Source: an uncultured Actinomycetes bacterium
Lineage (GTDB): Bacteria > Actinomycetota > Thermoleophilia > Gaiellales > Gaiellaceae
DNA: 64,000 nucleotides
Assembly: GCA_963702785.1 (NCBI GenBank)
Contig: CAVPDV010000002.1
Coordinates: 12,505-76,504, forward strand
Direction: 5' to 3'
The position numbers were made by a program, and so were the translations under genes. Below are positions 3,634 through 24,327 of this stretch, one piece after another. Positions within the stretch are counted from its first letter, which is position 1. The number at the start of each line of letters is the position of its first letter. The notes below the pieces were generated by a model that worked only from the letters and a program-made list of their open reading frames with translations, had not been told where the DNA came from and made no database searches.

Positions 3634-3723
3634 GATCGCCACCGGAGACTCTCCTCTCCTCAGGCTGCACACGGCAGCTATTGATGAGCGCGATCATCGT
3701 GGATTCGGACGAGTGAATCAAGA

Positions 3724-6485: not shown

Positions 6486-6522
6486 TTGCGCGGCCGCTAT
6501 TCAGTGCTACTATGTACTAGTA
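6486..6522 (+). promoter_or_regulatory. candidate padR promoter (TTGCGC-16 nt-TACTAT) with overlapping palindrome TACTAGTA
   Basis: An AT-rich island sits in GC-rich DNA 36-72 nt upstream of the padR ATG. The -35-like hexamer is at 6486-6491 and the -10-like hexamer at 6508-6513. The perfect 8-bp palindrome is at 6515-6522. Confidence 0.3.
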
Positions 6523-6557
6523 GTCAGTAACACTGGGTACCTAGGAGGAGGTGGTCC

Positions 6558-6887: not shown

Positions 6888-6889
6888 AC

Positions 6890-7270: not shown

Positions 7271-7300
7271 CGGCACAGCCGACCGCGGTCCGCGATCCAC

Positions 7301-8850: not shown

Positions 8851-9143
8851 TGCCCACCATTGCCCCGGCGCGGGGCGCACCAACCCCGGCGCTCGAAGGG
8901 AGCGGCCGCATTCGATGAGTTGCTGCACGAAATCGAAGACCGCATCGGGCTTCTCCCGCCTCGTCTGAGGAGCGCCTCGAGCTGCGCGCGTTCGCGCTTT
9001 CGAGGGCGCGCTCGAGCTGACGTGGATGCGTGATTCCGGGTCTGCCTCGGCAGCGACCTCTAGCCGTAACCCGGGCTGCGCCTTCACGCGCCCGGTTCGC
9101 GCAGGAGCGATGGTGTCGCTGTGCGAAGCAGGTCGCTGTCTCC

Positions 9144-9692: not shown

Positions 9693-10068
9693 ACTTGGGC
9701 CCCTGCCGTCGCTGTCTCATGTAGGCAGCACTCAGCGAAGCGGGAGCCTAGAGAGCGTCGCTGCCGCAGGCCTCGCCGTCTACGTCCTGAGCTCGAAGTA
9801 CGTCAAGGACAGCCGCACTTAAATCGAAGCCAGCAACCTCCGCCTCCATCGCCTCGACGACCCGGAGAATGGCTACCTCTATCTCCGCCGGCGACGTCTT
9901 CACTGGACCAGAGTCGTTTGGGCAGCAGGCGTGGTTCTGCTGCCCAAACTCCCCGTAACTCCCTGGAAACCGACCCGAATCGCGCGAACGTCGCGTCCGG
10001 TGCGCGAGCCCGTCTTTCGGCGCAACCGTGCGGGTTTGAGCGCCGTCGGAACTCGATCCACGGCACGT

Positions 10069-10110
10069 TTGCCATGCAGAAGGTCGTGGGTTCGAGTCCC
10101 ATCATCCGCT
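10069..10110 (+). repeat. tRNA-Gly(GCC) 3'-half-like stub, copy A
   Basis: TTGCCAT GCAGA AGGTC GTGGG TTCGAGT CCCAT CATCCGC T reads as anticodon loop with GCC, 3' anticodon stem, variable loop, T-arm, 3' acceptor strand and discriminator. The preceding 5 nt (CACGT) cannot pair with GCAGA, and no GCGGATG 5' acceptor strand is present. Confidence 0.6.
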
Positions 10111-10118
10111 CTCTAAGA

Positions 10119-10142
10119 GCCCCGCTAGACGGGGCTTTTGTT
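10119..10142 (+). terminator. intrinsic terminator after tRNA-like stub A
   Basis: GCCCCG-CTAGA-CGGGGC is followed by TTTTGTT. Confidence 0.7.
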
Positions 10143-10439
10143 GCCTCCATCTGCAACTCGGGCACCGCTAGACCGTCGTTGCTGCCCATTGCTGCCCATT
10201 CGATCGCCGCGTCGAACGCTTCCCGCTGCGGCTTTGCCATCCGGTCGCGGTCCAGCCTCGGAGTTTCCTTGCCGCCGGAGGCTGGAGTAGAGGGAGCCGT
10301 CACGCAGTCGCCTTAACCGACTCCTCGCGCGGAAAGGGGAGAACGCTTGCCAACCCGTGTCCCCGCCTTGTCTCGCCGGGACATACAAATGCTGGCATTC
10401 GGAGGCTCGCCGAGCCTCCCCCGCAAAAGGAGAACCGAG

Positions 10440-10703
10440 ATGTACCACTCCCGCCTCACCTTCAACTCGAACCGGGAATCTGCTCGCCGCGACGCAGCCT
10501 GCAGCCCGTCGCGCTTCGCCGGAGCTGCCCCAGATCCAAGGCAGCCGTGGTTGTCGGGGAGGGCGCTTCCGACGAGCTCGTCCAACTCCGCCGTCGCGAA
10601 CGAGAGGACCCCTTTCGAATTCGAACTCTACGAACACGCCTACGTCACGACTCGCGGACATTCACCCACGCCACCAGGCCCGCCGGGCCTGCGCGCCGCG
10701 TGA
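10440..10703 (+). CDS. hypothetical small protein (weak)
   Basis: The ATG is preceded by AAAGGAGAA at good spacing, and a hairpin lies 25 nt after the stop. The Ser/Arg/Pro-rich sequence has no motif I recognise. Confidence 0.25.
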   Translation: MYHSRLTFNSNRESARRDAACSPSRFAGAAPDPRQPWLSGRALPTSSSNSAVANERTPFEFELYEHAYVTTRGHSPTPPGPPGLRAA

Positions 10704-10728
10704 GCAGATCCCCGCCCGACACTGACGT

Positions 10729-10756
10729 GAAGGAGGCCCCGGTGGGGGCCTTCTTC
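10729..10756 (+). terminator. terminator-like hairpin
   Basis: GAAGGAGGCCCC-GGTG-GGGGCCTTCTTC is a 12-bp stem with one G-U pair. It has a pyrimidine-rich tail but no clean U-tract. Confidence 0.4.
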
Positions 10757-10782
10757 CCGGGAACCGGCGAAGGTTCGACGCA

Positions 10783-11539
10783 ATGCCTAGGGGTCTCTTC
10801 GGAACGCCGGCGCAGCGAATCGCGATGATGACTTCGGCTCATTCTTCCTTCACGCGTTCTGGGAAGAGTTGGGAGGTGAACAACGACCCGTATCGCTGGG
10901 ACGAGCGTGTCGAGGCGTGGGAGGAGGTCGCGACGAGTGAGGCGTTCCTCGCGATCCGCGACCGCATCGTCGAGCTTGCCGAGCCGCGGTCCGTCGATCA
11001 GGTGGTCGACCTCGGGGCCGGCACCGGGCTGCTGGCCCTCGCGTTGGCTCCCCGTGTCGATGAGTTGGTAGCCGTCGACAGCTCCGAGCGGATGCTCGAG
11101 CGGCTGGACGACGCGGCGGCGGCCGATGGCGCCCACAACATCGAGACTCTCGTGGCCGACCTCCGTTGGCTGCCTCTTGAGGACGAATCCGCGACGCTCG
11201 TCGTGTCGAATTACGCCTTCCACCATCTGGACGATGCTGGCAAGGAGCTGGCGCTCGCTGAGGCGCGGAGGATCCTGCGGCCGGGTGGACGGCTCGTGGT
11301 CTGCGACATGATGTTCTCGCTCTCGCTCAAGCCGCGAGACCGCCGGCTAGTCGGCGGCGAAGATCGTGGCTCTGCTGAAGCGCGGGCCGGCGGGCGTCAT
11401 TCGGATCCTTCGCAACGCCCTCCGTGTCGTCGCCGGACGCTGGGAGCAGCCCGCGACGCCCGAGACGTGGAAGCGAATGCTCGACGGCCGAGGGTTCGAA
11501 GACGTACGGATCAGCTTCTCAAGCACGAAGCCGCGATAG
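10783..11539 (+). pseudogene. class I SAM-dependent methyltransferase (at least one frameshift near 11350)
   Basis: VVDLGAGTGLLALALA (motif I), LVVSNYAFHHL and ARRILRPGGRLVVCDM are present. The C-terminus KIVALLKRGPAGVIRILRNALRVVAGRWEQPATPETWKRMLDGRGFEDV lies in another frame. Confidence 0.7.
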
Positions 11540-11645
11540 CTACTGCGCGCCGACCTGGTCTCAAACCCGGGCGAGCTCGGCGCGGCGCGCAGTCCGAGCT
11601 CGCTCGAAGCGTCGGAGGCGGCGTTTGACCCGGAGTCGGCCGAGG

Positions 11646-11813
11646 GTGTCCAGCCCGCTCAGAAGCGAATCGCGAATATCTCGTCTCGTCTTCGTCGTGG
11701 CGGCGGGAGTCGTTGCCACCACCATCGCCGATCTCTACGCCCCCACCGCAGTCCTCGTCGTCGTGTTTGCGTTAGCCATCGTCGGAGTTGCTGGCGCTTC
11801 ACTCGTCGGCTGA
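11646..11813 (+). CDS. possible small two-helix membrane protein (weak)
   Basis: The GTG-started reading is VSSPLRSESRISRLVFVVAAGVVATTIADLYAPTAVLVVVFALAIVGVAGASLVG. Confidence 0.3.
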   Translation: MSSPLRSESRISRLVFVVAAGVVATTIADLYAPTAVLVVVFALAIVGVAGASLVG

Positions 11814-11983
11814 TTCGCCGACCGAGGACACGGCGGGCAAGACGAAGAGCCTCGTGTCCGCTCCCTAGATTCGCGAAGGGTCGACACAAGTAGTGCCGCC
11901 CCCGGACAGGTTGCGGCTTTGCCGCGCGTGCGATCGGTCGCCGCGCCGATGCGGGCACCGGCGTGCATCGGCACCGTGCCCGC

Positions 11984-12759
11984 ATGGGCGAGATACGCGC
12001 CAGCAGGCTGCCGCCGGGCCGCGACGAGGCGACGCATCCGCGCGAGCAGGAGGCACTGCGCGAGCACATCCGCAGCGAGCGGCGGCGGCTCGCCCGCTTC
12101 ACACGGATCCGGAGCTCGTCCTCGGCTTTCAAGATGGGTTACTCGTCCCGCTCGCCGTCGTCACCGGACTCGCAGGAGCAGCCGTCGGCACGACCGCGGT
12201 GATCGTCGGTGGCGTCGCCGAGGCAGCCGCCGGCGCGCTCGCCATGGGCACCGGCGCCTATCTCGCCAGCCACGCCGAGAACCAGCTGATTGCGAGCGAG
12301 ATCGGAGACCAAGAAGCGGAAGCGGTCGACCACTCCGAGATCGAGCGCCTCGAGCTGCAGGTCCTCCTCCAGGAGGAAGGCCTGTCCGAAGCCGACGCCA
12401 AGACGGCCAGCGAAGCGATCGGGCATTCCATCCACGCACTCGTCAAGACGAAGATCGAGAAGGAGCTCGGGCTCCCCTTCAACGACACAGAGACAGCCCG
12501 CGGCGACGCCTACGTCGTCGGCGCCTCCTACGCCGTCGCCGCGGTCGTCCCGCTCTGGCCCTATTTTCTTTTCGGCCCGCACCTCGCCATGGCCCTCTCG
12601 ATCGTCGCGACCGGGGCTGCCCTCTTCGCACTCGGCATGCTCAAGGGCCACGTGGCCCGCCTCTCCCTCACCCGCAGCGGCCTGCAGGTGCTCACGGTCG
12701 GCGCGCTCTCGGCCGGCCTCGGCTACCTCATCGGCGGCCTCGGCCCCCACCTGTTCTGA
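11984..12759 (+). pseudogene. VIT1/CCC1 family iron/manganese transporter (frameshift near 12090)
   Basis: DPELVLGFQDGLLVPLAVVTGLAGA, a central acidic helix region and three C-terminal TM helices are present. The N-terminal REQEALREHIRSERRRLA lies in a different frame (ORF 11963-12202). Confidence 0.65.
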
Positions 12760-12794
12760 CCGAGCCGCGGTCGCCGGCGCGCCCCGTCCCGAGC

Positions 12795-13694
12795 TCAATA
12801 CCGCGGAAGCGCGAGACCGCGTCGTCCGAGCAGCTTCCATCGGACGCTGAAGAGCGTGTCGCTCCAGCGCTCCCGCTCACCGCTGAGCGGGTTGTTCACG
12901 AGTACGTAGCCCTTGCCGGCCCCGACGAGCACGACTGCATGCTCATTGAGGTTCACGGTGATCTTGCGGCCGGACGGCGTCAGCCAGCTCAGGTACGGGC
13001 CGGGCGCGAGCCCGACCCAGGCAAGCACCGGGTGGCCGGCAAGGACAACGGCGCGGACAGCCGCGACGCTGCGGCCGCGCAGGTCGACGAGTTGGACCCC
13101 GTACCGCGCCGCGAGGGCACGGATCGGGGGCTCATAGACGCCGAACCCTCCCTCGATGCCGCCACCCGCGGGCCGGCCGACGAAGCCGCGCTCCGGGTCG
13201 CCCCAGCGGAAGAGCGTGCTACCGGAGACGGGCTCCGGGTCGAGCGGCCCGCTGCGCGGCAGCCGTGCCTGCAGCTCGAGCTGTCCCGCCCGGACTCCTG
13301 CCCCGGCGAGAAGCATCGACAGCGCCGTCGCCTCGCAATCGTTGTGGAGTATCTGGCGGACGGGGCGTAGCGCGATCCTCGTCCAGAGCGGCACTACCGG
13401 CAAGTCGACACGGGTCTCGTGCGCCGCGAGTGCGCGCCTGACCAGAGGAAGCGCGCGGCGGACCGAAATCTCGACCTCGAGACGCGCCCGACCTCGCCGA
13501 AGCTCGACCTTGTCGGGGAGACGGATTCGGCGCCGGCCCGGTTGGAGAGACTTGATCCGCTGACCCGCCGCGTAAACGGCGAGCGGACGCGCTGCAGCAT
13601 GCGTCCCCGTGGTCGAGGCGCCGCTTCCGCAACCGGCGAGCAGAGCTCCGCCCGAGAGCACGGCGAAGATACGGCGGACGCGCATCGCGAGCAC
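12795..13694 (-). CDS. C39-like (papain-fold) peptidase domain lipoprotein
   Basis: The lipobox is LLAGCGSG. ILHNDCEATALSMLLAGAG is a catalytic-Cys-type motif, and NEHAVVLVGAGKGYVLVNNP is a His region. The frame is intact. Confidence 0.65.
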   Translation of the reverse strand: MLAMRVRRIFAVLSGGALLAGCGSGASTTGTHAAARPLAVYAAGQRIKSLQPGRRRIRLPDKVELRRGRARLEVEISVRRALPLVRRALAAHETRVDLPVVPLWTRIALRPVRQILHNDCEATALSMLLAGAGVRAGQLELQARLPRSGPLDPEPVSGSTLFRWGDPERGFVGRPAGGGIEGGFGVYEPPIRALAARYGVQLVDLRGRSVAAVRAVVLAGHPVLAWVGLAPGPYLSWLTPSGRKITVNLNEHAVVLVGAGKGYVLVNNPLSGERERWSDTLFSVRWKLLGRRGLALPRY

Positions 13695-13863
13695 GGTAGT
13701 CGCGGACGATGACAGGTCGACGAGCGCGTTCGGTTCGGGCTCTACGAAGCTGCGGCTAGCGGCACAGCGCGTTCCGGACGGCTCACAACCGGCGGAACGA
13801 GCAGTCTGCCAAAGGACGTTTCTCCGCCGATCGTCTCCGAACCTGGTCGGCGCTCTCAGAGGC

Positions 13864-14351
13864 TTAGGAGGAGGGGCACTTGCCCTGTTTGTAGGCGGCG
13901 TAATCGGCCGGCGACAGGATCCATCGCCACTTGCCGTTGAGGCTGACGGCGTGCATGGTCGCGGTGGTCACGCCATCGTCTGAGGTCACCCGGACGGAGA
14001 CGGCCGTGGAAGGCGTGGCCTTGCCAGCGATATCGACCGTGTCGGCGTAGGTCTGGAGGACTTTGAACTCTTTCAGGTCGAAACCCGGGCTGGTGTGGCA
14101 GGCCATGTAGCGGGCCCGGCTGACGATCGCCTGGTCGGCGGGGTGGAGCGTGTCCCAGAGCGGTCCGGTCTGGCCGAGGGAGAACTGTGTTGTGACCTGG
14201 CGAATGAAGGCGGCAGCCGATTGCTGTCCCTCCGGTGTACCGCTGCTCCGGCTTCCTCCGCAGCCGGTCAGAGCGACAGCGAGGAGCGCGGCGGTGGCGA
14301 GAACGGCGGCGCGTTTCGCCGCCAGTCGGTGGCGTGGGCGTTCAGTGCCAT
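13864..14351 (-). pseudogene. lipoprotein of unknown function (frameshift in the signal-peptide region)
   Basis: KRAAVLATAALLAVALTGCGGS is a lipobox, followed by ..RYMACHTSPGFDLKEFKVLQTY..NGKWRWILSPADYAAYKQGKCPSS. The only ATG (14351) is in a neighbouring frame. Confidence 0.5.
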
Positions 14352-15326
14352 GGGAACCGTCCTACCTGGGTGTTGACGACGACGGGGCGATCGCGAGCGA
14401 GGGGGAGCGGGCCGATCGCGATCTGGGTCGCCGAACTGCGGGATGAGCAGCGCCGCGATGTCGGGGCGAGAGGCGAGGAGGTCGCGCGCAACGTCGAGGG
14501 TCGCGATTCCAAGCGCGGTTGCGTATGCCTCCGCCTCGGTTGCGCTCGGCGGCCATGGACCGTGACCGAGAGCGGGCCGGCCGCGGCGGGCACGCCTGTG
14601 GCCGGGTCGATGAGGTGGTGGAGTCGCCTGCCGGCGCCGAACCGCCGCGTGTCGCGTCCTGACGTGGCGACGCCGCCGCTCGCGAGCTCGAGCGTGCCGA
14701 GCACGTGCTCGCGCCCTCGCGGGTCTCCGATGTCCACGCGCCACGCGCCGCCTTCGGGCGGGGTACCGCAGACGGCGATGTCGCCGCCGAGATCGACGAG
14801 TCCTCCGGGGAGCGCAGGCCAGGCGGCCTGCATCGCGGCGAGCGCGCGCGTCGCGGCGAAGCCCTTGCCGATCCCGCCGAGGTCGACGGCGGCGCCACGC
14901 TCGACGCGCGCCCGACCCGAGCGCGGGTCGACATCGATCGACGCGCCCGAATGCCAGCTCCTCGAGCACTACCGCGGCTCGATCGGTCAGCAGTTCGAAG
15001 GACCGGTCGTAGCCGGCGGCCACGAGTGCCGGAAGGATCGTCGGGTCGAACAGCCCGCCCGTGTCCGTGCGGCCGCGAAGCGCGGCTGCGAGCGCGTCGA
15101 GGAGCAGCGGATCGACGGCGACCCACTCGCCGGCGGCACTGTTGAGTCGCGACAGGTCGCTGCCCGCATCGAAGCGAGAAAGGGCACGCTCGCATGACGC
15201 CACCTCGGCCTGCGCTGCTGCGAGCGCGCGGCGCGCGAGGAGTACGTCCGGCGGACCCGCCGTCACGGCGACTTCGCAGACCGTGCCCATGGCACGGAAC
15301 GATCGGCGCTGCAGTTGGCTCGTCAT
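14342..15326 (-). pseudogene. apbE: FAD:protein FMN transferase, several frame changes
   Basis: RSFRAMGTVCEVAV, SRFDAGSDLSRLN, GGLFDPTILPAL, GLVDLGGDIAVCG and RLHHLIDPATGVPA are distributed over ORFs 14268-15473 and 14342-14833. Confidence 0.75.
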
Positions 15327-15962
15327 GCCGGTACCAGGGTCTCGGCGCTCTTCGTGCAACAGTCCGACGCTGGTCGAGGGCGCAGGAGGTGCGGTCCGGG
15401 CTGGCACCTTCCGGCCTGCTGGGCGCGGCAGCAGGATGCGCGCGTACGATGAGCCACACGACCGGAGCGGCAACGATTCCGCCGAAGATCAGGCCGCGTG
15501 TCCCGGTGAGATCGGTGCCGACGTTGAGGGCGTGGTAGAGGCCGATCGCGAAGGCCGCGAAGCTGGCGTAGTGCATCAGGCGCCAGCGGCGCTGGCCGAT
15601 GCGCCGGCGGACGTGGAAGGAGGTAGCGAGGGTCGAGCATGATCCACCCGGTGACGATTCCGGCGGCGACAGGCAGGGGACGCCACGGTGCCAGGCCGGG
15701 CACGAGCACTCCGGTGAATCCGAAGCGCATGACCGGGTCGAGGGCTAGCGCCGCCTCCGTGTAGGCCGACCATCCCGAGGCCGGTCCACATGATCGTCTG
15801 GTGCCAGCCGAGCAGCATCTTGCCGCGCGTGCCGCCGAGCAGCCTAGTACTGAGCGCAAGACCGAGCGTGACCGAGACCGCGAGAAGACCGAACGCCACG
15901 AGACCGGCGGCCCGCGCAACGAGCCACGCGACCGGCACTGACCCTGTGGCGGCGGCGATCAT
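15323..15962 (-). pseudogene. ferric reductase-like transmembrane (heme b) domain protein, frame-disrupted
   Basis: VAWLVARAAGLVAFGLLAVSVTLGLALSTRLLG, LLGWHQTIMWTGLGMVGLH and HYASFAAFAIGLYHALNVG lie in three ORF pieces. ATGA-type overlaps link it to both neighbours. Confidence 0.6.
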
Positions 15963-16177
15963 CCCGCCGGAACCGGCGAGGTTCGCGTCGTCGCGTGTGT
16001 CGGCGAGGCGCCGCCCTGCACGACGACGAGATGTGTCTGGCCGTTCTTGCCCGTCACAACCACAGCTCCCGGGATGTTCGCCGGCGCAGGCGCTGGCAGC
16101 GGCCGTGTCCAGGCCAGCACGGCGAGCACGGCGAATAGCGCCCACGTCGCAAAAACGGTTGCCCAGAGATTCCGCAT
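15959..16177 (-). CDS. small membrane-anchored protein, unknown function
   Basis: The 72-aa product has the N-terminal TM helix LWATVFATWALFAVLAVLAW. Its stop overlaps the downstream start. Confidence 0.45.
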   Translation of the reverse strand: MRNLWATVFATWALFAVLAVLAWTRPLPAPAPANIPGAVVVTGKNGQTHLVVVQGGASPTHATTRTSPVPAG

Positions 16178-16178
16178 C

Positions 16179-16397
16179 TCAGCCTCCCGGCTCGACGCGC
16201 TCCGGCTGCGTCGGCGCTTGCGGGGTGATGGTCTGGCCGATCTGCGGCGTCGACGGCGCCGCGGGGACGCTTCGCTTCAGGCCGGCGATGGCCGCGGCTC
16301 CGGTCAACGCGGTCGCCGCGAGCACGGCTGCGAGGATGAACACCTCGCGCCGAGTGACGGTCTTTGGGCCTGGCTGATCGCCTAGGGCAACAGCCAA
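16179..16397 (-). CDS. small membrane-anchored protein, unknown function
   Basis: The 72-aa product carries RREVFILAAVLAATALTGAAAIAG, a single TM helix or Tat-like signal, followed by a Pro/Thr-rich tail. It is the first gene of the minus-strand module. Confidence 0.4.
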   Translation of the reverse strand: MAVALGDQPGPKTVTRREVFILAAVLAATALTGAAAIAGLKRSVPAAPSTPQIGQTITPQAPTQPERVEPGG

Positions 16398-16630
16398 GGT
16401 GATCCTTTCGGGTCGGTTGAGTCGGGTGCCGGCCTCGCCGGCACCGTCTCACGGAGGGTCGCCGGAGAGCTGCACTGAGGCATCGGAACTACCGCACATC
16501 TCGTATACGGGTTATCCGCATCCCGCTGGCCCGGGGCTTGACCTGCCAGGCACGGCTGCGGGTTCTCCCGAGGCCGATCGGCGTAAGCCCCGACGCGCCT
16601 GGCCGCCCGACGCGCTGAAAATGGGATCAC

Positions 16631-17773
16631 ATGAGCGATTTGGTGGTCGTCGTCGGCAACGGCGTCTCCGGGTACGCCTGTGCGGCCCGGCTCGCAGATC
16701 GGGATGTGCCTGTCACGTTGATCGGTCCGGGCCTGCCGCACGATCGCCCACCCCTCTCCAAGCGAGCGCTCCTGACCGGGCACGTGCCGCTCCTTGCCGA
16801 CGCGGCGCAACTTGTGGAGCGAGGCATCGAGCACATCGACGGAGTTGTGACTGCGTGCGACCTCGACCGCCGCCGACTCGTCGTGCAACGCTCGGTCGAG
16901 CGTGGCCAGCTCGAGCTCGAAGCGCCGACAATCGTGTGGGCGACGGGCCTGCGCTACCCGAAGCCACCCGTGCCCGGAATCGAACAGGCTGAGGAGAACA
17001 CCACCGGCGCCGGCCTACTTTCGCTCGTCAGGCACTTTGCTTTGCCGCACAGGCGCGTGGTCGTGGTCGGTGCCGGCCTAATCGGCACAGAGACCGCTGC
17101 AACGCTCGCTGCCGCGCACGACGTGACGCTGGTCGACATGCTCGATCGTCCCCTTGCGCGATTCCTCCCGCGTGTCTCCGACGTCGCGCGCGCTGCGCTC
17201 GAAGAACTCGGGGTGCGCTTCCTGGGCTCGTGCAAGATCGACTCGGCGAGGATCGACGCCGACAGCGCCACTGTCCATACCTCCACGCATGGCGACCTGC
17301 ATTGCGACGTGGTCGTCTCGGCGGCCGGTTTCCGCTCCAGTCTGCCACCCGAGCTCGCCGGCCCTGATTCGAGGGCGCTCACCTTGCCCGCCGACGACCG
17401 CCTACGCGTGATCGGCCACGAGCGTCTCTGGGCGTGCGGCGACAGCGTCTCCTTCCCCCACCCGCGCTGGGGCCGCATCGGCATCCCACACTGGGAGCAC
17501 GCATTCTGGAGCGGCCGCCATGCGGCTGAATCGATCCTCGGCTCGACCGCGCCCTACATACGCGAGCCCTATTTCTTCAGCGACATCGGTCCTCTCCGCA
17601 TCCAGCAGATCGGCGTCGCCGACGCCGCCGTCGAGTGGCACGAGGAGGACGGACTCGTCGTCGGTCACGACTCCAGCGGCGCTCCTGCCTGCGTACTCCT
17701 CCTCAACGCACCGGCACGGCTGCGCGAAGCCCGAGAACTCATCGCCTCCGCCGAATACGTCGCCTCCGAATGA
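16631..17773 (+). CDS. NAD(P)/FAD-dependent ferredoxin reductase
   Basis: VVVVGNGVSGYACA and VVVVGAGLIGTETA are two dinucleotide-binding motifs, and LWACGDS is present. The 380-aa frame is intact. Confidence 0.8.
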   Translation: MSDLVVVVGNGVSGYACAARLADRDVPVTLIGPGLPHDRPPLSKRALLTGHVPLLADAAQLVERGIEHIDGVVTACDLDRRRLVVQRSVERGQLELEAPTIVWATGLRYPKPPVPGIEQAEENTTGAGLLSLVRHFALPHRRVVVVGAGLIGTETAATLAAAHDVTLVDMLDRPLARFLPRVSDVARAALEELGVRFLGSCKIDSARIDADSATVHTSTHGDLHCDVVVSAAGFRSSLPPELAGPDSRALTLPADDRLRVIGHERLWACGDSVSFPHPRWGRIGIPHWEHAFWSGRHAAESILGSTAPYIREPYFFSDIGPLRIQQIGVADAAVEWHEEDGLVVGHDSSGAPACVLLLNAPARLREARELIASAEYVASE

Positions 17774-17807
17774 CCCTCATCAGCCAATTCCCCAGGAGGA
17801 CACCGTC

Positions 17808-17996
17808 ATGCAAAGCGTGATTGTCGATTCCGACGCCTGCATCGGCTCCGCCGAATGCGTCGCGCTCGACCCAGACGCGGTGAAGCTCGACGAACACGGC
17901 ACCGCACAGATCCTTCTTCCCGAACTCGAAGAAGAACGCGCCAGAGAGCTCTGCGCCGCTTGCCCCACGGGTGCTCTTTCGCTCGCCGGTCCGTAG
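17808..17996 (+). CDS. small single-cluster ferredoxin
   Basis: VDSDACIGSAECVALDP...CAACP forms a CxxxxxC...CP pattern. The product is 62 aa, and an AGGAGGA RBS lies 7 nt upstream. Confidence 0.8.
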   Translation: MQSVIVDSDACIGSAECVALDPDAVKLDEHGTAQILLPELEEERARELCAACPTGALSLAGP

Positions 17997-18225
17997 CACG
18001 AATCAGTTTCCGACTGCCGACTACGTCTCGAAGACAATCGTCCTTGCGCCGAAGCATTGCTACGTCGGTGGCCCGTCGTCACGCCGCCCGAGGGTGCGTT
18101 GGTAGGTAGCGAGAGTTCGCGTAACGGTAGGGATGGGTGGAGACGCTGAACAGCTGCAACCCGGCGAGCGTGGTTCCGGCCCCACGCCTTGCATGAGGCG
18201 GCACCGGACCGCAGGCGTGGTCGCG

Positions 18226-18267
18226 TTGCCATGCAGAGGGTCGTGGGTTCGAGTCCCGTCATCCGCT
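18226..18267 (+). repeat. tRNA-Gly(GCC) 3'-half-like stub, copy B
   Basis: TTGCCATGCAGAGGGTCGTGGGTTCGAGTCCCGTCATCCGCT is present. No complementary 5' half lies upstream. Confidence 0.6.
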
Positions 18268-18326
18268 TCTAGAACCCGCTGACGGGCTGGACGTGGCTGC
18301 TCCGCCCTCGGCGGGAGAAGGAAGCG

Positions 18327-18356
18327 CTGGCATCTGTCCTCGTGGTGGTGTAGGTT
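18327..18356 (+). promoter_or_regulatory. candidate promoter of beta-helix paralog 1 (CTGGCA-18 nt-TAGGTT)
   Basis: The hexamers and the 18-nt spacing are conserved in the second unit (20232-20261), within an otherwise conserved ~150-nt leader. Confidence 0.3.
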
Positions 18357-18420
18357 CTTAGTTGGCTCTTAGGGGGCCGCTCGACCGGGTCCACCGGAGG
18401 AGATAGGAAGGGGAGGGAAC

Positions 18421-19901
18421 ATGCGGTTGAGAGGCGCTCTTCTGCTTGCGGCCACTGCGAGCGTGGGTGCGGTGTTGATGCTGGCTGGGCCGGCGTCGGC
18501 GGCGAACCTGCACTGCGGCCAGGATCTCAATTCGAGCGTGACGCTGATCGGCAACCTGGACTGTCACACGATTCCAGGGACGGCGCTGAAGATCGCGCAC
18601 GACGGCGTGACGCTGAATCTGAACGGGTTCACGGTCATCGGTTACGCCGGTGACGACGTGATCGGAACTTCACGTGCCCGGGCGGCGTCTGCACGTCGTT
18701 CAACGGGACGACGATCAAGGGCGGGTCGTTGGACGTCACCGGTGCCGGCACGGGGGTCGGCAACGAGAACACCAACGGTGGTGGTGGTAACACCCTCACC
18801 ATTGCGGGCGTGAAGATCGTCGGCGACGGCACTGTCGATTCCTACGGCGTGGACTCCCTGGACTCGACCGGGCTTTCGTTCACGGGTGGATCGATCAGCG
18901 GCGTCTACGCCGGCGTCTACGTGGACGGCGACACCGGCGACCTGATCAAGGGCAACACGATCACCCCCAACGATGGTGGCTTCGGCGTCGCGAGCGACGA
19001 CGACCAACACGGCGCTCTCGATCGTGAGCAACAAGTTCACGGACACCGACAGCGACCAGACGGGCCTTGCGCTGTACGACTTGTACGACGCCGGGACGCT
19101 GTTCAGCGGCAACACGGTGACCGGCATGGGCTACGGCGTGTTAGCGGACGCGTACGACGCGGGAATCACGATCACCGGCAACGTGATGGACGGCAACGAG
19201 GAAGGGATCGACCTCAACGAGCACGACTCGGGCGACATGATCGCCGGCAACTACATCAAGAACAGCGTCGACGAGGGGATCTCCGACACCGGGTCGTTCA
19301 ACAACACGTACACCGGGAACGTGCTGACGAGCAACGGCAACGTCTCGAACAGTGCGAGCTACTCATCGGCCCTGAGGGCTTCGGGCCGGTGACGATGGTC
19401 AACAACTACGCCCGCACGGGCAACGGCGTCGGCTTCGCCGTCCTCGGGGCGTACAGCGACAGCGTGCCGGGTGGGCCGTACAGCCTGTTCAGCGGCAACG
19501 TGGCGACGGCGAACGGCAGCTCGGACGCCCCGGGGTTCTTCGACGAGTACTCGGTCGGTGCGACCTGGTCGAAGAACGTCGCCAACTACAACGCCACGGA
19601 CGGGTTCGACTTCTGCGCCCCGTGGCGCGAGACGGTCACCGGTAACAGCGCGAACCTGAACGGTGGAAACGGCTACGTCTTCGCCTATGACTGCGACGAA
19701 GTGGTCGGACCGCCGCAGGTCACGCCGTTCCCGCTCATTGGTACGGCTGCAGACGAGCAGCCGCTTGCGGTCACGAACAACTCGGCGACCAACAACGGCG
19801 AGTACGGCTTCGCGGGCGAGTACCCGACTGCCGGCAGCGGCAACACGGGCAAGAACACGAACGCCTGCGGTGACTGCTACCTCGTGAGCGGCTGCAGCTA
19901 G
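18421..19901 (+). pseudogene. secreted right-handed parallel beta-helix repeat protein, paralog 1 (at least 3 frameshifts)
   Basis: The signal peptide is MRLRGALLLAATASVGAVLMLAGPASA. PbH1-like repeats include GNTITPNDGGFGV, FSGNTVTGMGYGV, ITITGNVMDGNEEGI and YTGNVLTSNGN. The C-terminus is GSGNTGKNTNACGDCYLVSGCS-stop. The gene is read across ORFs 18421-18813, 18729-19901 and 18973-19392. Confidence 0.75.
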
Positions 19902-19929
19902 ACGGACAGCCACTCTAGACCGGATCCCA

Positions 19930-19957
19930 GAGCGGGCCACGGCAACGTGGCCCGCTC
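19930..19957 (+). terminator. 12-bp-stem hairpin after paralog 1 (no U-tract)
   Basis: The hairpin is GAGCGGGCCACG-GCAA-CGTGGCCCGCTC. An identical copy lies at 21804-21831. Confidence 0.45.
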
Positions 19958-20133
19958 CGTCTCCCGCCGGAACAGGAGCCTCGTCTCCCTCCGTCGCGTG
20001 CGATACGGCCGGTGGAAGAAGCGCCACACGCCCGCTGCTGCCTGCCGCCTCCTGCAACCCGGTCAGCGGTGAATCCGCCTCCACGCCTGCATGAGGCAGA
20101 ACGAGCCGGAACCCGTTGACAGGTTGGGTCGTG

Positions 20134-20175
20134 TTGCCATGCAGAAGGTCGTGGGTTCGAGTCCGATCATCCGCT
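20134..20175 (+). repeat. tRNA-Gly(GCC) 3'-half-like stub, copy C (degenerate T-stem)
   Basis: TTGCCATGCAGAAGGTCGTGGGTTCGAGTCCGATCATCCGCT has one T-stem mismatch relative to copy A. Confidence 0.55.
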
Positions 20176-20231
20176 CTCAACCGCCGACGCGCTGGACGTG
20201 GCTGCTCCGCCCTCGGCGGGAGAAGTAGGCG

Positions 20232-20261
20232 CTGGCATCTGTCCTCGGAGTCGTGTAGCTT
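20232..20261 (+). promoter_or_regulatory. candidate promoter of beta-helix paralog 2 (CTGGCA-18 nt-TAGCTT)
   Basis: This is the positional equivalent of 18327-18356. Confidence 0.3.
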
Positions 20262-20318
20262 CTTAGTCGGCTCTTAGGGCTGTTCGACCGGGTCCACCGG
20301 AGGACAAAGGGAGGGAAC

Positions 20319-21774
20319 ATGCGGTTGAGAGGCGCTCTTCTGCTTGCGGCTACTGCGAGCGTGGGTGCGGTGCTGATGCTGGCTGGGCCGGCGTCGGCGG
20401 CGAACCTGCATTGTGGTCAGGATTTGACGGGCAGCGTGACGCTGATCGGCAATCTGGACTGCTCGGCCTACGGCGACTGGGCGCTCAGGTTCGATTCGCT
20501 GCATCCCGGCGTGACGCTGAACCTGAACGGGTTCAAGGTGATCGGCGCGGCCGGTCATCACGTGATCAACACGGACGGCGCCAGCAACATCACGATCAAG
20601 GGCGGCGAGCTCGACGTCAAGGGTGACGGGATCGGGATCGCGAACTTCTTCGGGAGCAGCAACCTCGTGGTCGCGGGTGTGACGATCAAGGGTGACGGCA
20701 CCCCCGATTCCGAGGGTATTTACTCCAACGGTGGCCTGAACATGAGCGTCACCGGCGGTTCGATCAGCGGCGTCGACGGCGGCGTCGTCCTCGACGGTGA
20801 CACCGGTGACCTGATCAAGGGCAACACGATCACACCGAACGACGGTGGTTACGGCGTCTTCAGCGACGAGGACCTGACCGGCACGATGATCGTGAGCAAC
20901 ACGTTCACAAACACCGACGCTGACCAGACCGGCGTCGCCTACTTCGCCGAGTACGACGCCGGCACGCTGTTCAGCGGCAACACGGTGACCAAGATGGAGT
21001 ACGGCGTCTACGACGAGTACTACAGCGCGGGGCTGACGATCACCGGCAACGTGATGGACGGCAACGTCGACGGGATCTACTTCCGCGGGTACGGCGCGGG
21101 CGACGTGATCTCGAACAACTACATCAAGAACAGCGTCGACGAGGGGATCTATGACGCCCGCTCGTTCAACAACACGTACACGGGCAACGTGCTGACGAGC
21201 AACGGCAATGTCTCGAACAGCGCGAGCTACCTGATCGGCCCTGAGGGCTACGGGCCGGTGACGATGGTCAACAACTACGCCCGGACGGGCGACGGTGTCG
21301 GCTTTGCCGTCCTCGGGGCGTACAGCGACAGTGTCCCGGGTGGGCCGTACAGCCTGTTCAGCGGCAACGTGGCGACGGCGAACGGCAGCTCGGACGCTCC
21401 TGGGTTCTTCGACGAGTACTCGGTTGGTGCGACCTGGTCGAAGAACGTCGCCAACTACAACAATGCGGACGGGTTCGACTTCTGCGCTCCGTGGCGGGAG
21501 ACGGTCACGGGCAACAGCGCGAACCTGAACGGCGGAGATGGCTACTACTTCGTCTACGCGTGCGACGATCTGGTCGGACCGCCGCAGGTCACACCGTTCC
21601 CGCTCGTTGCAACCGCTGCAGACGAGCAGCCGCTCGCGGTCACGAACAACTCGGCGACCAACAACGGCGGGTACGGTTTCGAGGGCTTCGACTATCCCGA
21701 CCGCCGGCAGCGGCAACACGGGCGGCAAGACGAACGGCTACGGAGACTGCTACCTGATCAGCGGCTGCAGCTAG
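20319..21774 (+). pseudogene. secreted right-handed parallel beta-helix repeat protein, paralog 2 (single frameshift about 60 nt before the stop)
   Basis: The signal peptide is identical to paralog 1, with PbH1-like repeats throughout. Frame 1 runs through GGYGFEGFDY, after which the conserved C-terminus PTAGSGNTGGKTNGYGDCYLISGCS-stop lies in the frame of ORF 21538-21774. The 527-aa track ORF reads through to 21902 only because of this shift. Confidence 0.75.
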
Positions 21775-21803
21775 GTCGACAGCACACTCTCAACCGATCC
21801 CTG

Positions 21804-21831
21804 GAGCGGGCCACGGCAACGTGGCCCGCTC
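21804..21831 (+). terminator. 12-bp-stem hairpin after paralog 2
   Basis: Its sequence is identical to 19930-19957. Confidence 0.45.
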
Positions 21832-21836
21832 TGTCT

Positions 21837-21902
21837 AACGGCAACACGGGCGGCGGCACGAACGCAGAGGGCGACTGCTATCTCGTCGCCGGCTGCAGCT
21901 AG
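21837..21902 (+). pseudogene. orphan 3' end of a third beta-helix paralog
   Basis: It encodes NGNTGGGTNAEGDCYLVAGCS-stop directly behind the hairpin, with no upstream gene body. Confidence 0.6.
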
Positions 21903-21917
21903 ACAGCGGCGGCCGAT

Positions 21918-23879
21918 CTAGCCGGACGTTCCCGGCTTCAGGTGGAAGTAGGCCTGGTAGATCTCCTTCGCCGCCGGCGCCGCGGCCTCGGCGCCGTAGC
22001 CGCCGTGCTCGATCATCACGACGACGACGAGCTTCGGATGGTCGTACGGAGCCCACGACGCGTACCAGGAATGGACTCCGAGCGGCGGCGCCTCGGCGGT
22101 GCCCGTCTTGCCGGCGACCGTGGGCTTGAAGCCCGAGAAGACGCCGGCCGACGTTCCGGCAGGATCGTTCGCCGCCTCGTAGAGCCCCTGCGTGATCGCC
22201 GAGGTGTAGGGCGAGAGCTTCAGCTTGCGCACCGGCTTGATGGGGAGCACGTGGCGAACGCCGTTCCGGATCACGGCCTCTCCGACGTGCGGACGGACGA
22301 CCGTGCCGCCGTTGACCAGCGCGGAGTAGGCGACCGCGAGCTGGAGCGGGCTGACCTGGAGCGCGCCCTGCCCGATCGCGAGGTTGATCGTCTGGCCCTC
22401 CGTCCAGCCGACGCAGGCGCAGAGCTTCTTGAAGTACGAGCCCGGGCCGGGCACGTAGCCCGCGGACGCCCCGGTCAGGTCTACCGGGGGCGTCGTTCCG
22501 AGCCCGAGCTTGCGCGCCCAGTTCTGGATCAGCGTCCCTTGCGCCGACGGGTCGGCTGCCCAGATCCGGTCGCCGAGCCGGTAGAACCACGTGTCGCACG
22601 ACTGCTCGAGCGCGGTGGGCAGGGTCATGTCCTCGTAGATTCCCGCCTCGACGTTGTGGAAGATCGTGCCGCCGAGGTCGAACGAGCCGGAGCAGAGCTG
22701 CGGCGTGCTCGGCGTGATGATCCCCGCGCTGAGCGCGGCCTCGGCGATGATCGGCTTGAACGTCGAGCCGGTCGGATAGACGCCCGAGATCGCGCGGTTC
22801 AGCGTCGGGGTGGTCGACTTGTCGTTGTAGAGCTGCGTGAGGTAGTGCGGGTTCTCGGCCGCTTTCTTCTCGTCGAAGGTCGGGTAGCTGGCGATCGCCT
22901 TGATCGCGCCCGTCCAGGGGTCGATGGCGACCGCGGAGGCGCCGGTCGGGCTGTAGCCGTAGGAGCGAGAGTCGGCCATGCCGTCGAGCAGCGCCTTCTC
23001 GGTCGCCCTCTGCAGCCGTGCGTCGATCGAGAGCTGGAGCGTCGGCGGCTGCTTCTGGGGCGGGACGACGAGCGGGCCGGCGATGCGGCCGAGCGAGTCG
23101 ACCGGGATCTTCGCCTTGAGGAAGCCGGGGTCGAGGATCGAGTCGTAGGCAGCCTCGACGCCGCTCTGGCCCACGACCTCGCCGGCCTGCGCGTGCTTGT
23201 ACGCACCGGACTCGAGCTCCGGCTTGCTCACCTGCCCGAGCAGGCCGAGGAACTCGCTGCCGAAGGCGCCCTGCGGGTAGCTGCGCGACGCCTCCCCCTC
23301 GACCTTGAAGCCGGGGAACTTGTCGCTTCGCTCCTGCAGGTAGTCCGCGAGCGCGGCCCTCGGGTGCGGGATGACCACCGCCGGGGCGAACGGCGACTGG
23401 AGGACGGCCGACTTGACCCGCGCGACGAGAGTGCTCCGCTTCGTGCCCGACAGCCGCCCGAGGCGCCCGAGCGCGCGCAGCCCCACGGCGTTGGGATGCC
23501 AGATGCCGTGCGCGCCGATCGTGCCGAGCGAGGCCGCGTCGGCATCGACGAAGACGTGACCGCTCGTGCCTGCGAGCAGGCGCCCGCGGTCGTCGACGAT
23601 CGCTCCGCGCGGGCCGGGCAGGTTGACCGTCCGGTAGGCCTGCCGGTGTGTGCTGGCCGAGTACTGCCGCCCGTGCAGCACCTGGATCGACCATGCGCGC
23701 AGGAACAGGAGCGTGAGGAGCGCGGCGACGACGGCGGCGAGCCCGCCGACGCGGACATAGAAGCCGGGGCTGCGGAAATACGGCGCGTCGGCGCGCGAGT
23801 ACGGCTGCGGGCGGCGTCCCCGCGGAAGGTTCCGGGGGAGCTTCACCCGGCGGCGCGGATCCGGTCTCGAGATCGCCAC
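21918..23879 (-). CDS. mrdA: class B penicillin-binding protein 2 (peptidoglycan D,D-transpeptidase)
   Basis: An N-terminal TM anchor is present, with STFKP (SxxK), SCDTWFY and KTGTAE (KTG). The 653-aa frame is intact. Confidence 0.85.
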   Translation of the reverse strand: MAISRPDPRRRVKLPRNLPRGRRPQPYSRADAPYFRSPGFYVRVGGLAAVVAALLTLLFLRAWSIQVLHGRQYSASTHRQAYRTVNLPGPRGAIVDDRGRLLAGTSGHVFVDADAASLGTIGAHGIWHPNAVGLRALGRLGRLSGTKRSTLVARVKSAVLQSPFAPAVVIPHPRAALADYLQERSDKFPGFKVEGEASRSYPQGAFGSEFLGLLGQVSKPELESGAYKHAQAGEVVGQSGVEAAYDSILDPGFLKAKIPVDSLGRIAGPLVVPPQKQPPTLQLSIDARLQRATEKALLDGMADSRSYGYSPTGASAVAIDPWTGAIKAIASYPTFDEKKAAENPHYLTQLYNDKSTTPTLNRAISGVYPTGSTFKPIIAEAALSAGIITPSTPQLCSGSFDLGGTIFHNVEAGIYEDMTLPTALEQSCDTWFYRLGDRIWAADPSAQGTLIQNWARKLGLGTTPPVDLTGASAGYVPGPGSYFKKLCACVGWTEGQTINLAIGQGALQVSPLQLAVAYSALVNGGTVVRPHVGEAVIRNGVRHVLPIKPVRKLKLSPYTSAITQGLYEAANDPAGTSAGVFSGFKPTVAGKTGTAEAPPLGVHSWYASWAPYDHPKLVVVVMIEHGGYGAEAAAPAAKEIYQAYFHLKPGTSG

Positions 23880-23913: not shown

Positions 23914-24327
23914 TCACTGCTCCGCGATCTCGTCTGCCAGAAGCGAGAGGGCGAAGCAACGCCAGGCGAGATCCGGCTCGGCCCGCAGCGACTCGAGTGC
24001 CGCCGCGACGGCCGGCAGCTCCTCCGCCGGCAACTCGTCGAGCGCCTCCGCGAGCTGCCGGCGACGCTCCGGCGTGTCGAGCTCCGCCGCGAGACGCTCC
24101 GCCGCGATGGACTCGGGGCCGAGGTCGCGGTGCGGGTCGCCGCCGGCGGCGAGGACGAACATCGCGCGCCGGCGGGCGGCCTTCAGCTCGGCCTCCGCGA
24201 TGGCCACGTCCTCCCGGACGAGCCAGCAGAGCACGACGAGCAGCTCGCTCGACCGTGGGTCGAGCCCGGAACGCTCCAGGTCCTCGAGCCTAGCCCGGAT
24301 CCCGGCAGTCACCCGTCTCGCCTTCAC
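23914..24327 (-). CDS. hypothetical protein (helical, Ala/Glu/Leu-rich)
   Basis: This intact 137-aa ORF sits in the same transcriptional direction between the zinc-ribbon ORF and mrdA. I recognise no motif. Confidence 0.45.
   Translation of the reverse strand: MKARRVTAGIRARLEDLERSGLDPRSSELLVVLCWLVREDVAIAEAELKAARRRAMFVLAAGGDPHRDLGPESIAAERLAAELDTPERRRQLAEALDELPAEELPAVAAALESLRAEPDLAWRCFALSLLADEIAEQ

Follow-up and report, generated by a model that had tools for sequence, protein, structure and literature searches.

Tandem beta-helix genes carrying putative copies of a tRNA-Gly(GCC) integration scar in a Thermoleophilia genome

In the 64-kb window (the whole stretch of DNA that was analysed, from an uncultured, Gaiellaceae-like soil bacterium of the Thermoleophilia), we found two tandem units of ~1.9 kb, at 18154-19957 and 20052-21831, that have their parts in common and that join the 3' part of a tRNA-Gly(GCC) gene to a gene for a secreted beta-helix protein. 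We read this arrangement, with a probability of roughly 0.7, as an att scar that tandem duplication copied along with one gene, the copies then having undergone partial gene conversion. The odd-looking cassette would then consist of two textbook processes, i.e., a tRNA-gene integration scar on the one hand and tandem duplication with gene conversion on the other, and therefore it should not be treated as a new system.

The sequence-only reading had correctly located the shared parts of the two units, namely a block, a 42-nt stub, a leader, a signal peptide, and a 28-nt hairpin. Unless noted otherwise, all features are on the forward strand. Unit 1 opens with block 1 (18154..18225) and unit 2 with block 2 (20052..20133), both starting with CTGCAACCCGG; the two are ~58-62% identical, with indels, and block 1 may be read as a decayed copy of the stub-adjoining sequence, that is, of the end of an integrated element. 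Each block abuts its stub, c1 (18226..18267) or c2 (20134..20175), which are identical at 40 of 42 positions. The post-stub segment and leader follow, at 18268..18420 in unit 1, with a GGGAGG ribosome-binding site, and at 20176..20318 in unit 2, and they include the leader motif TTCTTAG-N4-CTCTTAGG at 18355-18373 and 20260-20278, respectively. Beta-helix gene 1 (18421..19901), encoding a signal peptide and a right-handed parallel beta-helix, is interrupted as assembled by three frameshifts of 1 nt each (after 18665, at ~19008, and after 19362). In beta-helix gene 2 (20319..21774), an extra nucleotide in the CCC run (21696-21698) extends the assembled ORF to 21902. The genes are followed by two identical copies of the 28-nt hairpin, a terminator-type stem-loop without a U tract (19930..19957 and 21804..21831). 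Between the units lies a unique spacer (19958..20051) starting with CAGGAGCC, which, compared by eye with the post-hairpin sequence of loci L005 and L001, looks like a truncated start of a family-type leader. On the 3' side of hairpin 2, a remnant of a third beta-helix gene (21837..21902) retains the last 21 codons, NGNTGGGTNAEGDCYLVAGCS, and the stop; it belongs to repeat family D4, as the third member, and fits the C-terminal consensus of the beta-helix family. The gene of penicillin-binding protein 2 (PBP2; 21918..23879, reverse strand; Pfam Transpeptidase and PBP_dimer) comes next, and stub c2 is the tRNA-Gly(GCC) 3' part closest to it. A third copy of the 3' part, stub c3 (10069..10110), is adjoined by no beta-helix gene and is immediately followed by an intrinsic terminator (10119..10142), as judged by sequence and fold. 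Frameshifts are also seen elsewhere in the window, in a ketosynthase gene (1104-2736) and in ApbE (14268-15473). Dinucleotide shuffles of the window gave chance expectations of 0.00 for stub matches (3 observed), 0.00 for hairpin matches (2 observed), and 0.01 for leader-motif matches (2 observed).

The stubs correspond to positions 32-73 of genuine Thermoleophilia tRNA-Gly(GCC), from the anticodon loop to the discriminator, and lack the 5' half. A search with the 42-nt stub pattern matched at least 119 genome loci, all of them in Thermoleophilia MAGs, among which 101 matches lie inside intact tRNA-Gly(GCC) genes and ~18 are 5'-less stubs. The window stubs are 0-2 bases away from the commonest form of this tRNA. 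Homology stops at the start of the anticodon loop (position 32), which is a canonical crossover sublocation; the partner strand of the stem, TCTGC, is present in genuine genes and missing at c1, c2, and c3, and the T-arm and the 3' strand of the acceptor are almost intact in all three. ARAGORN called no tRNA at c1 or c2, its sole call in the window being a tRNA-Cys at 34819. Similarly, Rfam reported no tRNA family at the stubs (17900-22000) even at E values up to 10, and only chance-level matches at the gathering threshold over the whole window, and neither an intact tRNA-Gly nor a tRNA-Gly 5' half is present within the 64 kb. In other genomes, identical stubs adjoin unrelated genes, and terminators resembling the one at 10119..10142 follow tRNA-Gly stubs in L010, L035, and L042. 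The stub pattern had no match in viral collections. Overall, the stub is best read as an ordinary att scar left by mobile DNA integrating at tRNA genes, and no new element type; of the two options given in the sequence-only reading, the att remnant carried along was the correct one. The stub matches a genuine tRNA 3' part, and such scars recur in relatives. Comparison among genomes suggests that the stub and the beta-helix family are independent of each other: a beta-helix homologue lies near 0 of the 119 tRNA-Gly loci listed, and the stub occurs in 0 of 19 other family leaders, though most of these have the leader motif and the hairpin. Homologues elsewhere that always lack stub and leader had been named as grounds for refuting the sequence-only reading; this applies to the stub but not to the leader, whose motif is family-wide.

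The surroundings of the units point to the site from which the stubs came. In five relatives, PBP2 is adjoined by a tRNA-Gly, which is intact in L020, L033, L053, and L069 and a stub in L124, and which is separated by 0.5-2.4 kb from where the PBP2 homologue has its 3' end. The window PBP2 is 71-74% identical to the tRNA-Gly-adjoining homologues in four of these genomes, with a partial match at the fifth locus, and the PBP2 neighbors across the five loci include homologues of the window's 23914-24327 protein, an aminotransferase, and an aldehyde dehydrogenase. Because tRNA-Gly adjoins PBP2 in these relatives, we consider the window to hold the native tRNA-Gly locus, split by low-GC inserted DNA; the GC content is 0.63-0.70 from ~2.5 to 21.9 kb vs. 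0.72-0.74 outside. Most probably, the native tRNA-Gly gene originally ended in what is now stub c2, which was later displaced. Since the window shows no intact tRNA-Gly or 5' half, and its scanned ORFs no integrase, the left end of the island lies outside our view. The post-stub segments have no significant similarity to the sequences downstream of the native tRNA-Gly in relatives, and neither they nor the spacer nor the 157 nt before block 1 gave significant matches against all fetched loci. The source and the related loci are MAG assemblies throughout.

The ~80-90 nt that precede the stub most probably derive from one end of an element of the integrating kind. On the block 2 side, a 139-nt alignment (~93 nt upstream plus the stub) shows 82% identity to the flank of a stub in another Gaiellaceae MAG (L025), and block 2 is nearer to the L025 block (70%) than to block 1 (58-62%). 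Integrases (Pfam Phage_integrase) are found near intact tRNA-Gly genes in L103 (48 nt) and in L060 and L076 (~2 kb); none was detected among the 35 window ORFs scanned with Pfam. In addition, one 525-aa gene of L028 is flanked by an intact tRNA-Gly on one side and by a further copy of the tRNA-Gly 3' part on the other, 1.8 kb apart. In Thermoleophilia, a poorly studied soil class, the tRNA-Gly(GCC) by PBP2 would be a hot spot at which integration recurs, and the element ends there fall into several families.

The beta-helix genes appear to have regulatory ends of their own. The motif TTCTTAG-N4-CTCTTAGG is kept in most family leaders from other genomes, and family genes elsewhere mostly have the same hairpin on their 3' side. 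The leader motif is predicted to be promoter/operator-like; promoter-like hexamers had been described in the leader, but a consensus scan detected no sigma-70-type hexamer pair. An RNAalifold consensus of the leader from 17 family members contained no pairs, although the variable middle aligns poorly and a length-variable hairpin there could escape such an analysis. The hairpin, a plain 12-bp stem, folds at -32.8 kcal/mol (z -4.4 vs. shuffles), and in Rfam it matched, at chance level, part of the Transposase-2 RNA model (E 2.2; cut-off 42.7 bits). We also considered an integron gene cassette and rejected it, as the shared hairpin is a plain terminator stem rather than an attC site and the scanned window ORFs include no integrase.

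Both proteins score above the curated Pfam cut-offs for NosD (PF05048; 25.9 bits) and Beta_helix (PF13229; 23.6 bits), which bears out the proposed family membership: the gene 2 protein reaches 63.8 bits (E 1.5e-16) and 61.0 bits (E 1.8e-17), respectively, and the repaired gene 1 protein 43.8 and 51.1 bits. An AlphaFold2 model of the gene 2 protein (pLDDT 86, pTM 0.86) is a parallel beta-helix with regular three-strand turns, for which Foldseek returned tailspikes, NosD, and AlgG. The family is rare, with only 24 homologues among 5.8 billion proteins and no match in viral collections, and is marked by the motifs LHCG...LIGNLDC at the N-terminus and GDCYLVAGCS at the C-terminus. Tandem arrays are usual for it, with 5 copies in L001, 2 in L002, and 3 in L003, which are independent assemblies. 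These secreted proteins probably bind or cut a polysaccharide, and the variable N-terminal turns together with the tandem arrays may have been shaped by selection acting on contacts with a surface or a glycan. The frameshifts in the beta-helix genes are probably long-read homopolymer errors, which in long-read MAG contigs can give intact genes the appearance of pseudogenes.

Identity between the units is non-uniform, as the sequence-only reading had noticed. Pairwise alignment gave 79% identity overall. Across 18564-18917, which encodes the N-terminal helix turns, the value is 48-66%; it rises to 71-85% in the middle part and reaches 88-96% across 19278-19636. The signal peptides are indeed near-identical (96% over the first 47 residues), and the leaders, with the post-stub segments, share 81-88% identity. 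Synonymous divergence (dS) changes about three-fold along the gene, from 0.17-0.37 in the conserved ends to 0.5-0.94 in the variable part. Over the C-terminal 184 residues, genes 1 and 2 are mutually closest (89%, vs. at most 80% for other family members), whereas for each N-terminal variable region the paralogues of other genomes are closer (61% and 66%) than the neighboring copy (53%). This contrast is compatible with the recombination or gene conversion at the gene ends that had been suggested, and from it we infer conversion between the units. The N-terminal regions predate any recent duplication, and consequently a simple one-step duplication is insufficient. The variable region does not resemble the target of a diversity-generating retroelement, since there is no adenine bias (A accounts for 36 and 41 of 196 mismatches, and all four bases are hit), and no additional copy of it that could serve as template repeat exists within the 64-kb window.

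These observations can be arranged into the following history, in which the order of events, and duplication rather than accretion, are our interpretation. Elements with tyrosine-type integrases would have entered the native tRNA-Gly(GCC) at the anticodon loop, and with each insertion the former 3' part (positions 32-73) would have been moved downstream and left there as a direct-repeat scar, so that three scars (c3, c1, and c2) remained within a low-GC mosaic of accessory genes. The ~80-nt block before c1 and c2 would represent the end of one integrating-element family. Genes for secreted parallel beta-helix (NosD/CASH-type) proteins, a small tandem family, would have come to lie 3' of a scar, each gene presumably being transcribed separately, with a promoter/operator-like leader specific to the family and a terminator hairpin of its own. 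One unit, comprising block, scar, leader, gene, and hairpin, may then have been copied via unequal or illegitimate recombination. Subsequent gene conversion would have limited divergence in leader, signal peptide, and the final ~190 codons, the N-terminal helix turns remaining distinct or being swapped with other paralogues, and later deletion would have removed most of the third copy. It had been argued that a stub repeated before each gene is not explained by simple duplication of a coding region; this difficulty disappears if the duplicated unit included the upstream intergenic scar.

An unlikely, though not negligible, alternative is that the array grew by recombination at the stub instead of homologous or illegitimate duplication, the 1.9-kb unit from c1 to c2 being an integrase-less, att-flanked single-gene cassette (a cis-mobilizable element) inserted at the tRNA-Gly site by an integrase acting in trans. 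Two stubs in the same orientation bound unit 1, and identity between the units steps from ~62% to ~85-90% precisely at the stub, a sharp change that would also be expected from independent site-specific insertions. The closeness of block 2 to the element end of another genome rather than to block 1 is in line with such accretion, and there are precedents in the single 525-aa gene of L028 and in Dehalococcoides islands that lie between 3'-end repeats without integration modules (PMC3146451). However, c1 and c2 are homologous on both flanks (the left one formed by the block, the right one by post-stub segment, leader, and gene), which argues against this reading because independent insertions should share one side only. 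Moreover, the gene 2 unit has no block or stub on its right-hand side, the sequence 3' of c3 is unrelated to that 3' of c1 despite the relatedness of blocks 1 and 2, and neither the other 119 tRNA-Gly loci listed nor the window ORFs scanned supplied a neighboring beta-helix gene or an integrase, respectively. It is distinctly doubtful that the displaced tRNA-Gly(GCC) 3' part is still an attachment site to which integrase-less single-gene units (1.9 kb here, 1.8 kb in L028) are added serially in trans. If it were, site-specific accretion would account for how such secreted-protein gene arrays are assembled, in a cassette system with a tRNA fragment as recombination site.

Two further explanations seem very improbable. 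Block and stub could be transcribed with each gene and act as a tRNA-like processing, stability, or regulatory signal, given their same position and orientation before both genes and the near-intact T-arm and acceptor 3' strand in three copies. Yet no cloverleaf is possible because the stub lacks the 5' half, ARAGORN and Rfam are silent at the stubs, and the folding energy of block and stub together does not exceed that of shuffled sequence (z -0.8 and -1.4), with predicted folds that differ between the units. The stub is also missing from the 19 other family leaders, and unrelated genes are its neighbors both at 10069 and in other genomes; the second option of the sequence-only reading, an RNA processing or stability element, is thus not borne out. 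Equally hard to credit is a single gene duplicated or rendered chimeric by repeat misassembly in the metagenome. The contig is part of a MAG, with frameshifts in both copies and in other window genes, but 21% of the aligned columns hold a difference or a gap between the copies, which represent distinct N-terminal types, each with closer relatives in other genomes, and tandem arrays of the family recur in independent assemblies. Duplication of a scar-bearing unit with later conversion thus remains our preferred reading, and beyond the scar, the locus draws attention to a rare, uncharacterized family of secreted beta-helix proteins that is arranged in tandem, varies in its N-terminal turns, and has a conserved leader and a terminator of its own.

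Genomic islands and prophages in tRNA or tmRNA genes are bounded by a direct repeat of the 3' part of the gene. A survey by Williams in 2002 is said to include an anticodon-loop sublocation class of tyrosine integrases. In Dehalococcoides, tandem islands are bounded by repeats of the ssrA 3' end, and some lack integration genes (PMC3146451). Direct repeats of tRNA or tmRNA 3' ends bordering tandem genomic islands are well described (e.g., PMC3146451), contrary to the view that no described system has this arrangement. As in those islands, the repeat in the window is a genuine tRNA 3' part from the anticodon loop onward, several repeats in the same orientation lie downstream of the native site with a conserved element end directly upstream, synteny is interrupted at lower GC, and integrases occur by the intact gene in related genomes. 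Unlike in those islands, the window includes neither the intact tRNA-Gly nor an integrase, and one inter-repeat interval is just 1.9 kb long, with a single gene and a paralogue after the next repeat too. Cis-mobilizable elements and accretion at att sites are known from ICESt1/ICESt3 of Streptococcus thermophilus. The concept is cited in PMC3146451 and PMC5704250. The short integrase-less segment between two att-type repeats, with other island remnants adjoining, is reminiscent of it; by contrast, the homology on both sides of c1 and c2, whose att sites are putative, points to duplication. The array also resembles tandem paralogue arrays under concerted evolution, in which unequal crossing-over and gene conversion act and an exposed domain varies, in that its 5' and 3' ends are homogenized within the genome and the variable region clusters across genomes, with a ~three-fold change in dS, variable array size, and truncated copies, although conversion is deduced here from sequence comparison rather than seen directly. 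Finally, the proteins resemble NosD/CASH proteins in their PF05048 and PF13229 matches above cut-off, their confident beta-helix model, and their signal peptide, with the phage HK620 tailspike, NosD, AlgG and AlgE epimerases, and inulin lyases as structural neighbors; they differ in that this fold similarity is generic (TM-score at most 0.5, ~12% identity) and in having N- and C-terminal motifs of their own.

Two consecutive units with the same ordered parts, as the sequence-only reading had described them, were confirmed at 18154-19957 and 20052-21831. Each unit opens with a block of about 70-80 nt beginning CTGCAACCCGG, followed by a 42-nt stretch resembling the 3′ part of tRNA-Gly(GCC) (stub c1, 18226-18267; stub c2, 20134-20175), a leader of about 150 nt, a beta-helix gene, and a hairpin. 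The signal peptides of the two genes are near-identical and the 28-nt hairpin is identical in both units; according to shuffled controls, none of the stub, hairpin, and leader-motif repeats is expected by chance. In the alignment, the units share 79% identity overall, and the mosaic pattern proposed earlier was borne out, with 48-66% identity over 18564-18917, 71-85% in mid-gene, 88-96% over 19278-19636, and 100% in the hairpin. Between the genes, the conserved ends have dS values of 0.17-0.37 and the variable part has values of 0.5-0.94; dN/dS is near or above 1 in two 40-codon patches, where counts are small. The mismatch spectrum between the units is even, which excluded a DGR.

The 42-nt stub pattern, scanned over one genome per species, was found at 119 or more loci, and all those listed belong to Thermoleophilia MAGs (Gaiellaceae, Gaiellales, Solirubrobacterales, Thermoleophilaceae, and Miltoncostaeaceae). 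Among the 121 listed matches, 101 lie inside intact tRNA-Gly(GCC) genes with the 5′ half GCGGATGTAGCTCAGTTGGCTAGAGCGTCTGC, and about 18 are 5′-less stubs resembling the window copies; this call was made by a simple 5′-half test, with which ARAGORN, run on 40 loci, agreed. The occurrence of the pattern within intact genes identifies the window stubs, as judged from sequence, as positions 32-73 of the genuine tRNA-Gly in this lineage. Homology stops where the anticodon loop begins, the TCTGC stem strand of genuine tRNA-Gly genes is missing from the window stubs, and no tRNA-Gly 5′ half was found anywhere in the 64-kb window. A third copy, stub c3 (10069-10110), is found 8 kb upstream of the two units without an adjoining beta-helix gene and is followed by a clean, strong intrinsic terminator, the whole feature spanning 10069-10142. 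The tRNA element before each gene copy, which had made the arrangement look new, is best read as an attachment-site scar at a disrupted tRNA-Gly gene, carried along with the beta-helix gene.

In five relatives (L020, L033, L053, L069, and L124), tRNA-Gly is located 0.5-2.4 kb off the 3′ end of the penicillin-binding protein 2 (PBP2) gene, intact in four and as a stub in the fifth (L124). The PBP2 proteins of the four full-length matches are 71-74% identical to that of the window (21918-23879, minus strand), and across the five loci homologs of the next window genes also adjoin PBP2. Because this neighborhood is common to the five relatives, the native tRNA-Gly locus lies in the window. A small gene on the PBP2 strand, conserved between PBP2 and tRNA-Gly in all five, is absent from the window, where 16 nt separate the remnant of a third beta-helix copy (21837-21902; NGNTGGGTNAEGDCYLVAGCS and a stop codon) from the PBP2 stop, the two genes being convergent. 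The missing gene and the position of the remnant point to a deletion at this junction, a later event that would have reduced the third copy to its last 21 codons and stop. Stub c2 is followed, 14.6 kb farther downstream, by a tRNA-Cys(GCA) gene at 34819-34890; in other relatives (L015, L043, and L046) the tRNA-Gly to tRNA-Cys distance ranges from 70 nt to 4.4 kb, and the tRNA neighborhood is therefore variable across the class.

The GC content is 0.63-0.70 over about 2.5-21.9 kb, compared with 0.72-0.74 elsewhere in the window. This stretch carries accessory genes encoding a LuxR-type regulator, an ABC-2 transporter, a chloramphenicol-phosphotransferase-like protein, a methyltransferase, VIT1, a C39-like peptidase, ApbE, and a ferredoxin reductase with its ferredoxin. 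It probably represents several decayed islands inserted at tRNA-Gly. No integrase was found among the ORFs scanned at about 2500-21900, and neither the left boundary of the stretch nor an intact tRNA-Gly was found within the window.

The window leaders (18341-18420 and 20246-20318) were compared with those of family genes at five loci from other genomes (L001, L002, L003, L004, and L007). The majority leader of the family reads GTCCGTCCTCGT-ATTCGTGTACGT-TCTTAG-N5-CTCTTAGG (its middle part also written TTCTTAG-N5-CTCTTAGG), then GACCGG, GGGAGG, and ATGCGGTTGAGAGG; a minority second type has GGATAGCGTT instead. In many leaders, GACCGG and the ribosome-binding site are preceded by a GTGGCC...GGCCAC hairpin of variable length, and the same type of terminal hairpin (GGAGCGGGCCGCGGAGACGCGGCCCGCTCC) follows each family gene across the family loci. 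Upstream of homologs elsewhere, the leader is present in most cases, and neither stub nor block occurs in any of the 19 leaders from other genomes. Likewise, no member of the beta-helix family occurs at the listed tRNA-Gly loci (at least 119). Given these stub-free leaders and family-free tRNA-Gly loci, leader and hairpin belong to the gene family and stub and block to the integration site, and their joining is local. No sigma-70 consensus promoter was found in the leader, and RNAalifold gave no consensus RNA structure, the alignment being poor at the variable hairpin; we read the leader as a putative family-specific promoter or operator with a short 5′ UTR.

Our favored account of the tandem units is duplication of one segment, in which block, scar, leader, gene, and hairpin would have been copied together by unequal or illegitimate recombination. 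It is preferred because c1 and c2 have homologous flanks on both sides, the block preceding each stub and the post-stub segment, leader, and gene following it, which fits the copying of one segment and not two independent insertions. The same observation argues against the main rival, site-specific accretion of an att-flanked unit lacking its own integrase, which we consider rather improbable even though identity rises abruptly at the stub, block 2 is nearer to the block of a stub locus in another genome (L025, 70%) than to block 1 (58-62%), and a comparable single-gene interval exists at L028. Duplication alone would not be a complete history. In the N-terminal variable region, gene 1 is 61% identical to P0003 and gene 2 is 66% identical to P0001, both family proteins of other genomes, and the two are 53% identical to each other, whereas their C-terminal 184 residues are mutually nearest (89%, and at most 80% to any other member). 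These conflicting affinities indicate that the history was not simple and that gene conversion or exchange among paralogs would be required, in support of the earlier proposal.

Two further explanations are unlikely. Against a functional tRNA-like RNA, as in the idea of an RNA processing or stability element, neither ARAGORN nor Rfam recognized a tRNA at the stubs, the folding of block plus stub did not surpass that of shuffled sequences, and the two units are predicted to fold differently. An assembly artefact is opposed by the 21% of alignment columns that differ or are gapped, by the distinct N-terminal types, and by other, independent assemblies in which arrays recur.

As assembled, gene 1 (18421-19901) contains three single-base frameshifts (after 18665, at about 19008, and after 19362), and an extra C in 21696-21698 lets the ORF of gene 2 read through the hairpin to 21902. 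All four can be read as homopolymer-length changes and are therefore probable consensus errors. The frameshifted gene 2 ORF ends in frame in GDCYLVAGCS, the conserved C-terminal motif, supplied by the third-copy remnant; this is probably a coincidence plus a sequencing error. Each of two other genes, for a ketosynthase (1104-2736) and ApbE (14268-15473), is broken across two reading frames, with N- and C-terminal Pfam parts on different ORFs, suggesting contig-wide assembly indel errors and not cassette-specific pseudogenes. Frameshifts also split several genes of the L001 array (8373-9808, 11634-13153, and the C-terminus of P0015). The window derives from an 82,968-bp MAG contig, related contigs bear Flye-style names, and many related MAGs originate in the Nanopore-based Microflora Danica project (PMC12313526).

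The parallel beta-helix assignment was upheld, as both genes exceed the Pfam Beta_helix and NosD cut-offs. An AlphaFold2 model from a 20-sequence alignment shows a right-handed parallel beta-helix after the signal peptide (pLDDT 86, pTM 0.86), with a low-confidence loop at residues 417-432 of gene 2 that is present in only some family members. Structure and profile matches are generic (HK620 tailspike, NosD, the AlgG and AlgE epimerases, and inulin lyases; TM-score at most 0.5), and the protein is predicted to be secreted and glycan-binding or glycan-cleaving. The family is small, with only 24 homologs among 5.8 billion proteins and 16 metagenome loci, and no member was found in viral contigs. 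Near-invariant motifs containing cysteine mark both ends of its proteins: the signal peptide is followed by LHCGQ...LIGNLDC, and the C-terminus carries GSGNTG..TN..GDCYLVAGCS. In other uncultured genomes the genes typically stand in tandem, with two to five copies per array, as in L001 (five copies, 8373-16807), L002 (two), L003 (three), and L132.

In relatives, Pfam Phage_integrase proteins are encoded near intact tRNA-Gly, at 48 nt (L103) or about 2 kb (L060 and L076), and a single Gaiellaceae contig (L123 and L126) has two pattern matches about 16 kb apart. On another Gaiellaceae contig, at L028 (418-2298), an intact tRNA-Gly(GCC) is followed 1.8 kb downstream by a second copy, whose 3′ 42 nt are identical and whose 5′ half is only ~60% similar, with one 525-aa gene on the opposite strand between them. 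Grouped by eye, the flanks upstream of stubs appear to form a few recurring types: stub c2 and the ~93 nt that precede it are jointly 82% identical to the L025 stub flank, the c3 flank resembles by eye that of L059, and a third type is common to L011, L107, and L124. This is the pattern expected of integrating-element ends lying against a displaced tRNA 3′ part. The beta-helix units add an example of known processes, from a lineage that has been little studied. In the tandem ssrA islands of Dehalococcoides, a conserved motif lies upstream of each 3′-end repeat, and some islands are without integration genes (PMC3146451); the window resembles them in having a recurring sequence directly upstream of the displaced 3′-part repeat (PMC3146451).
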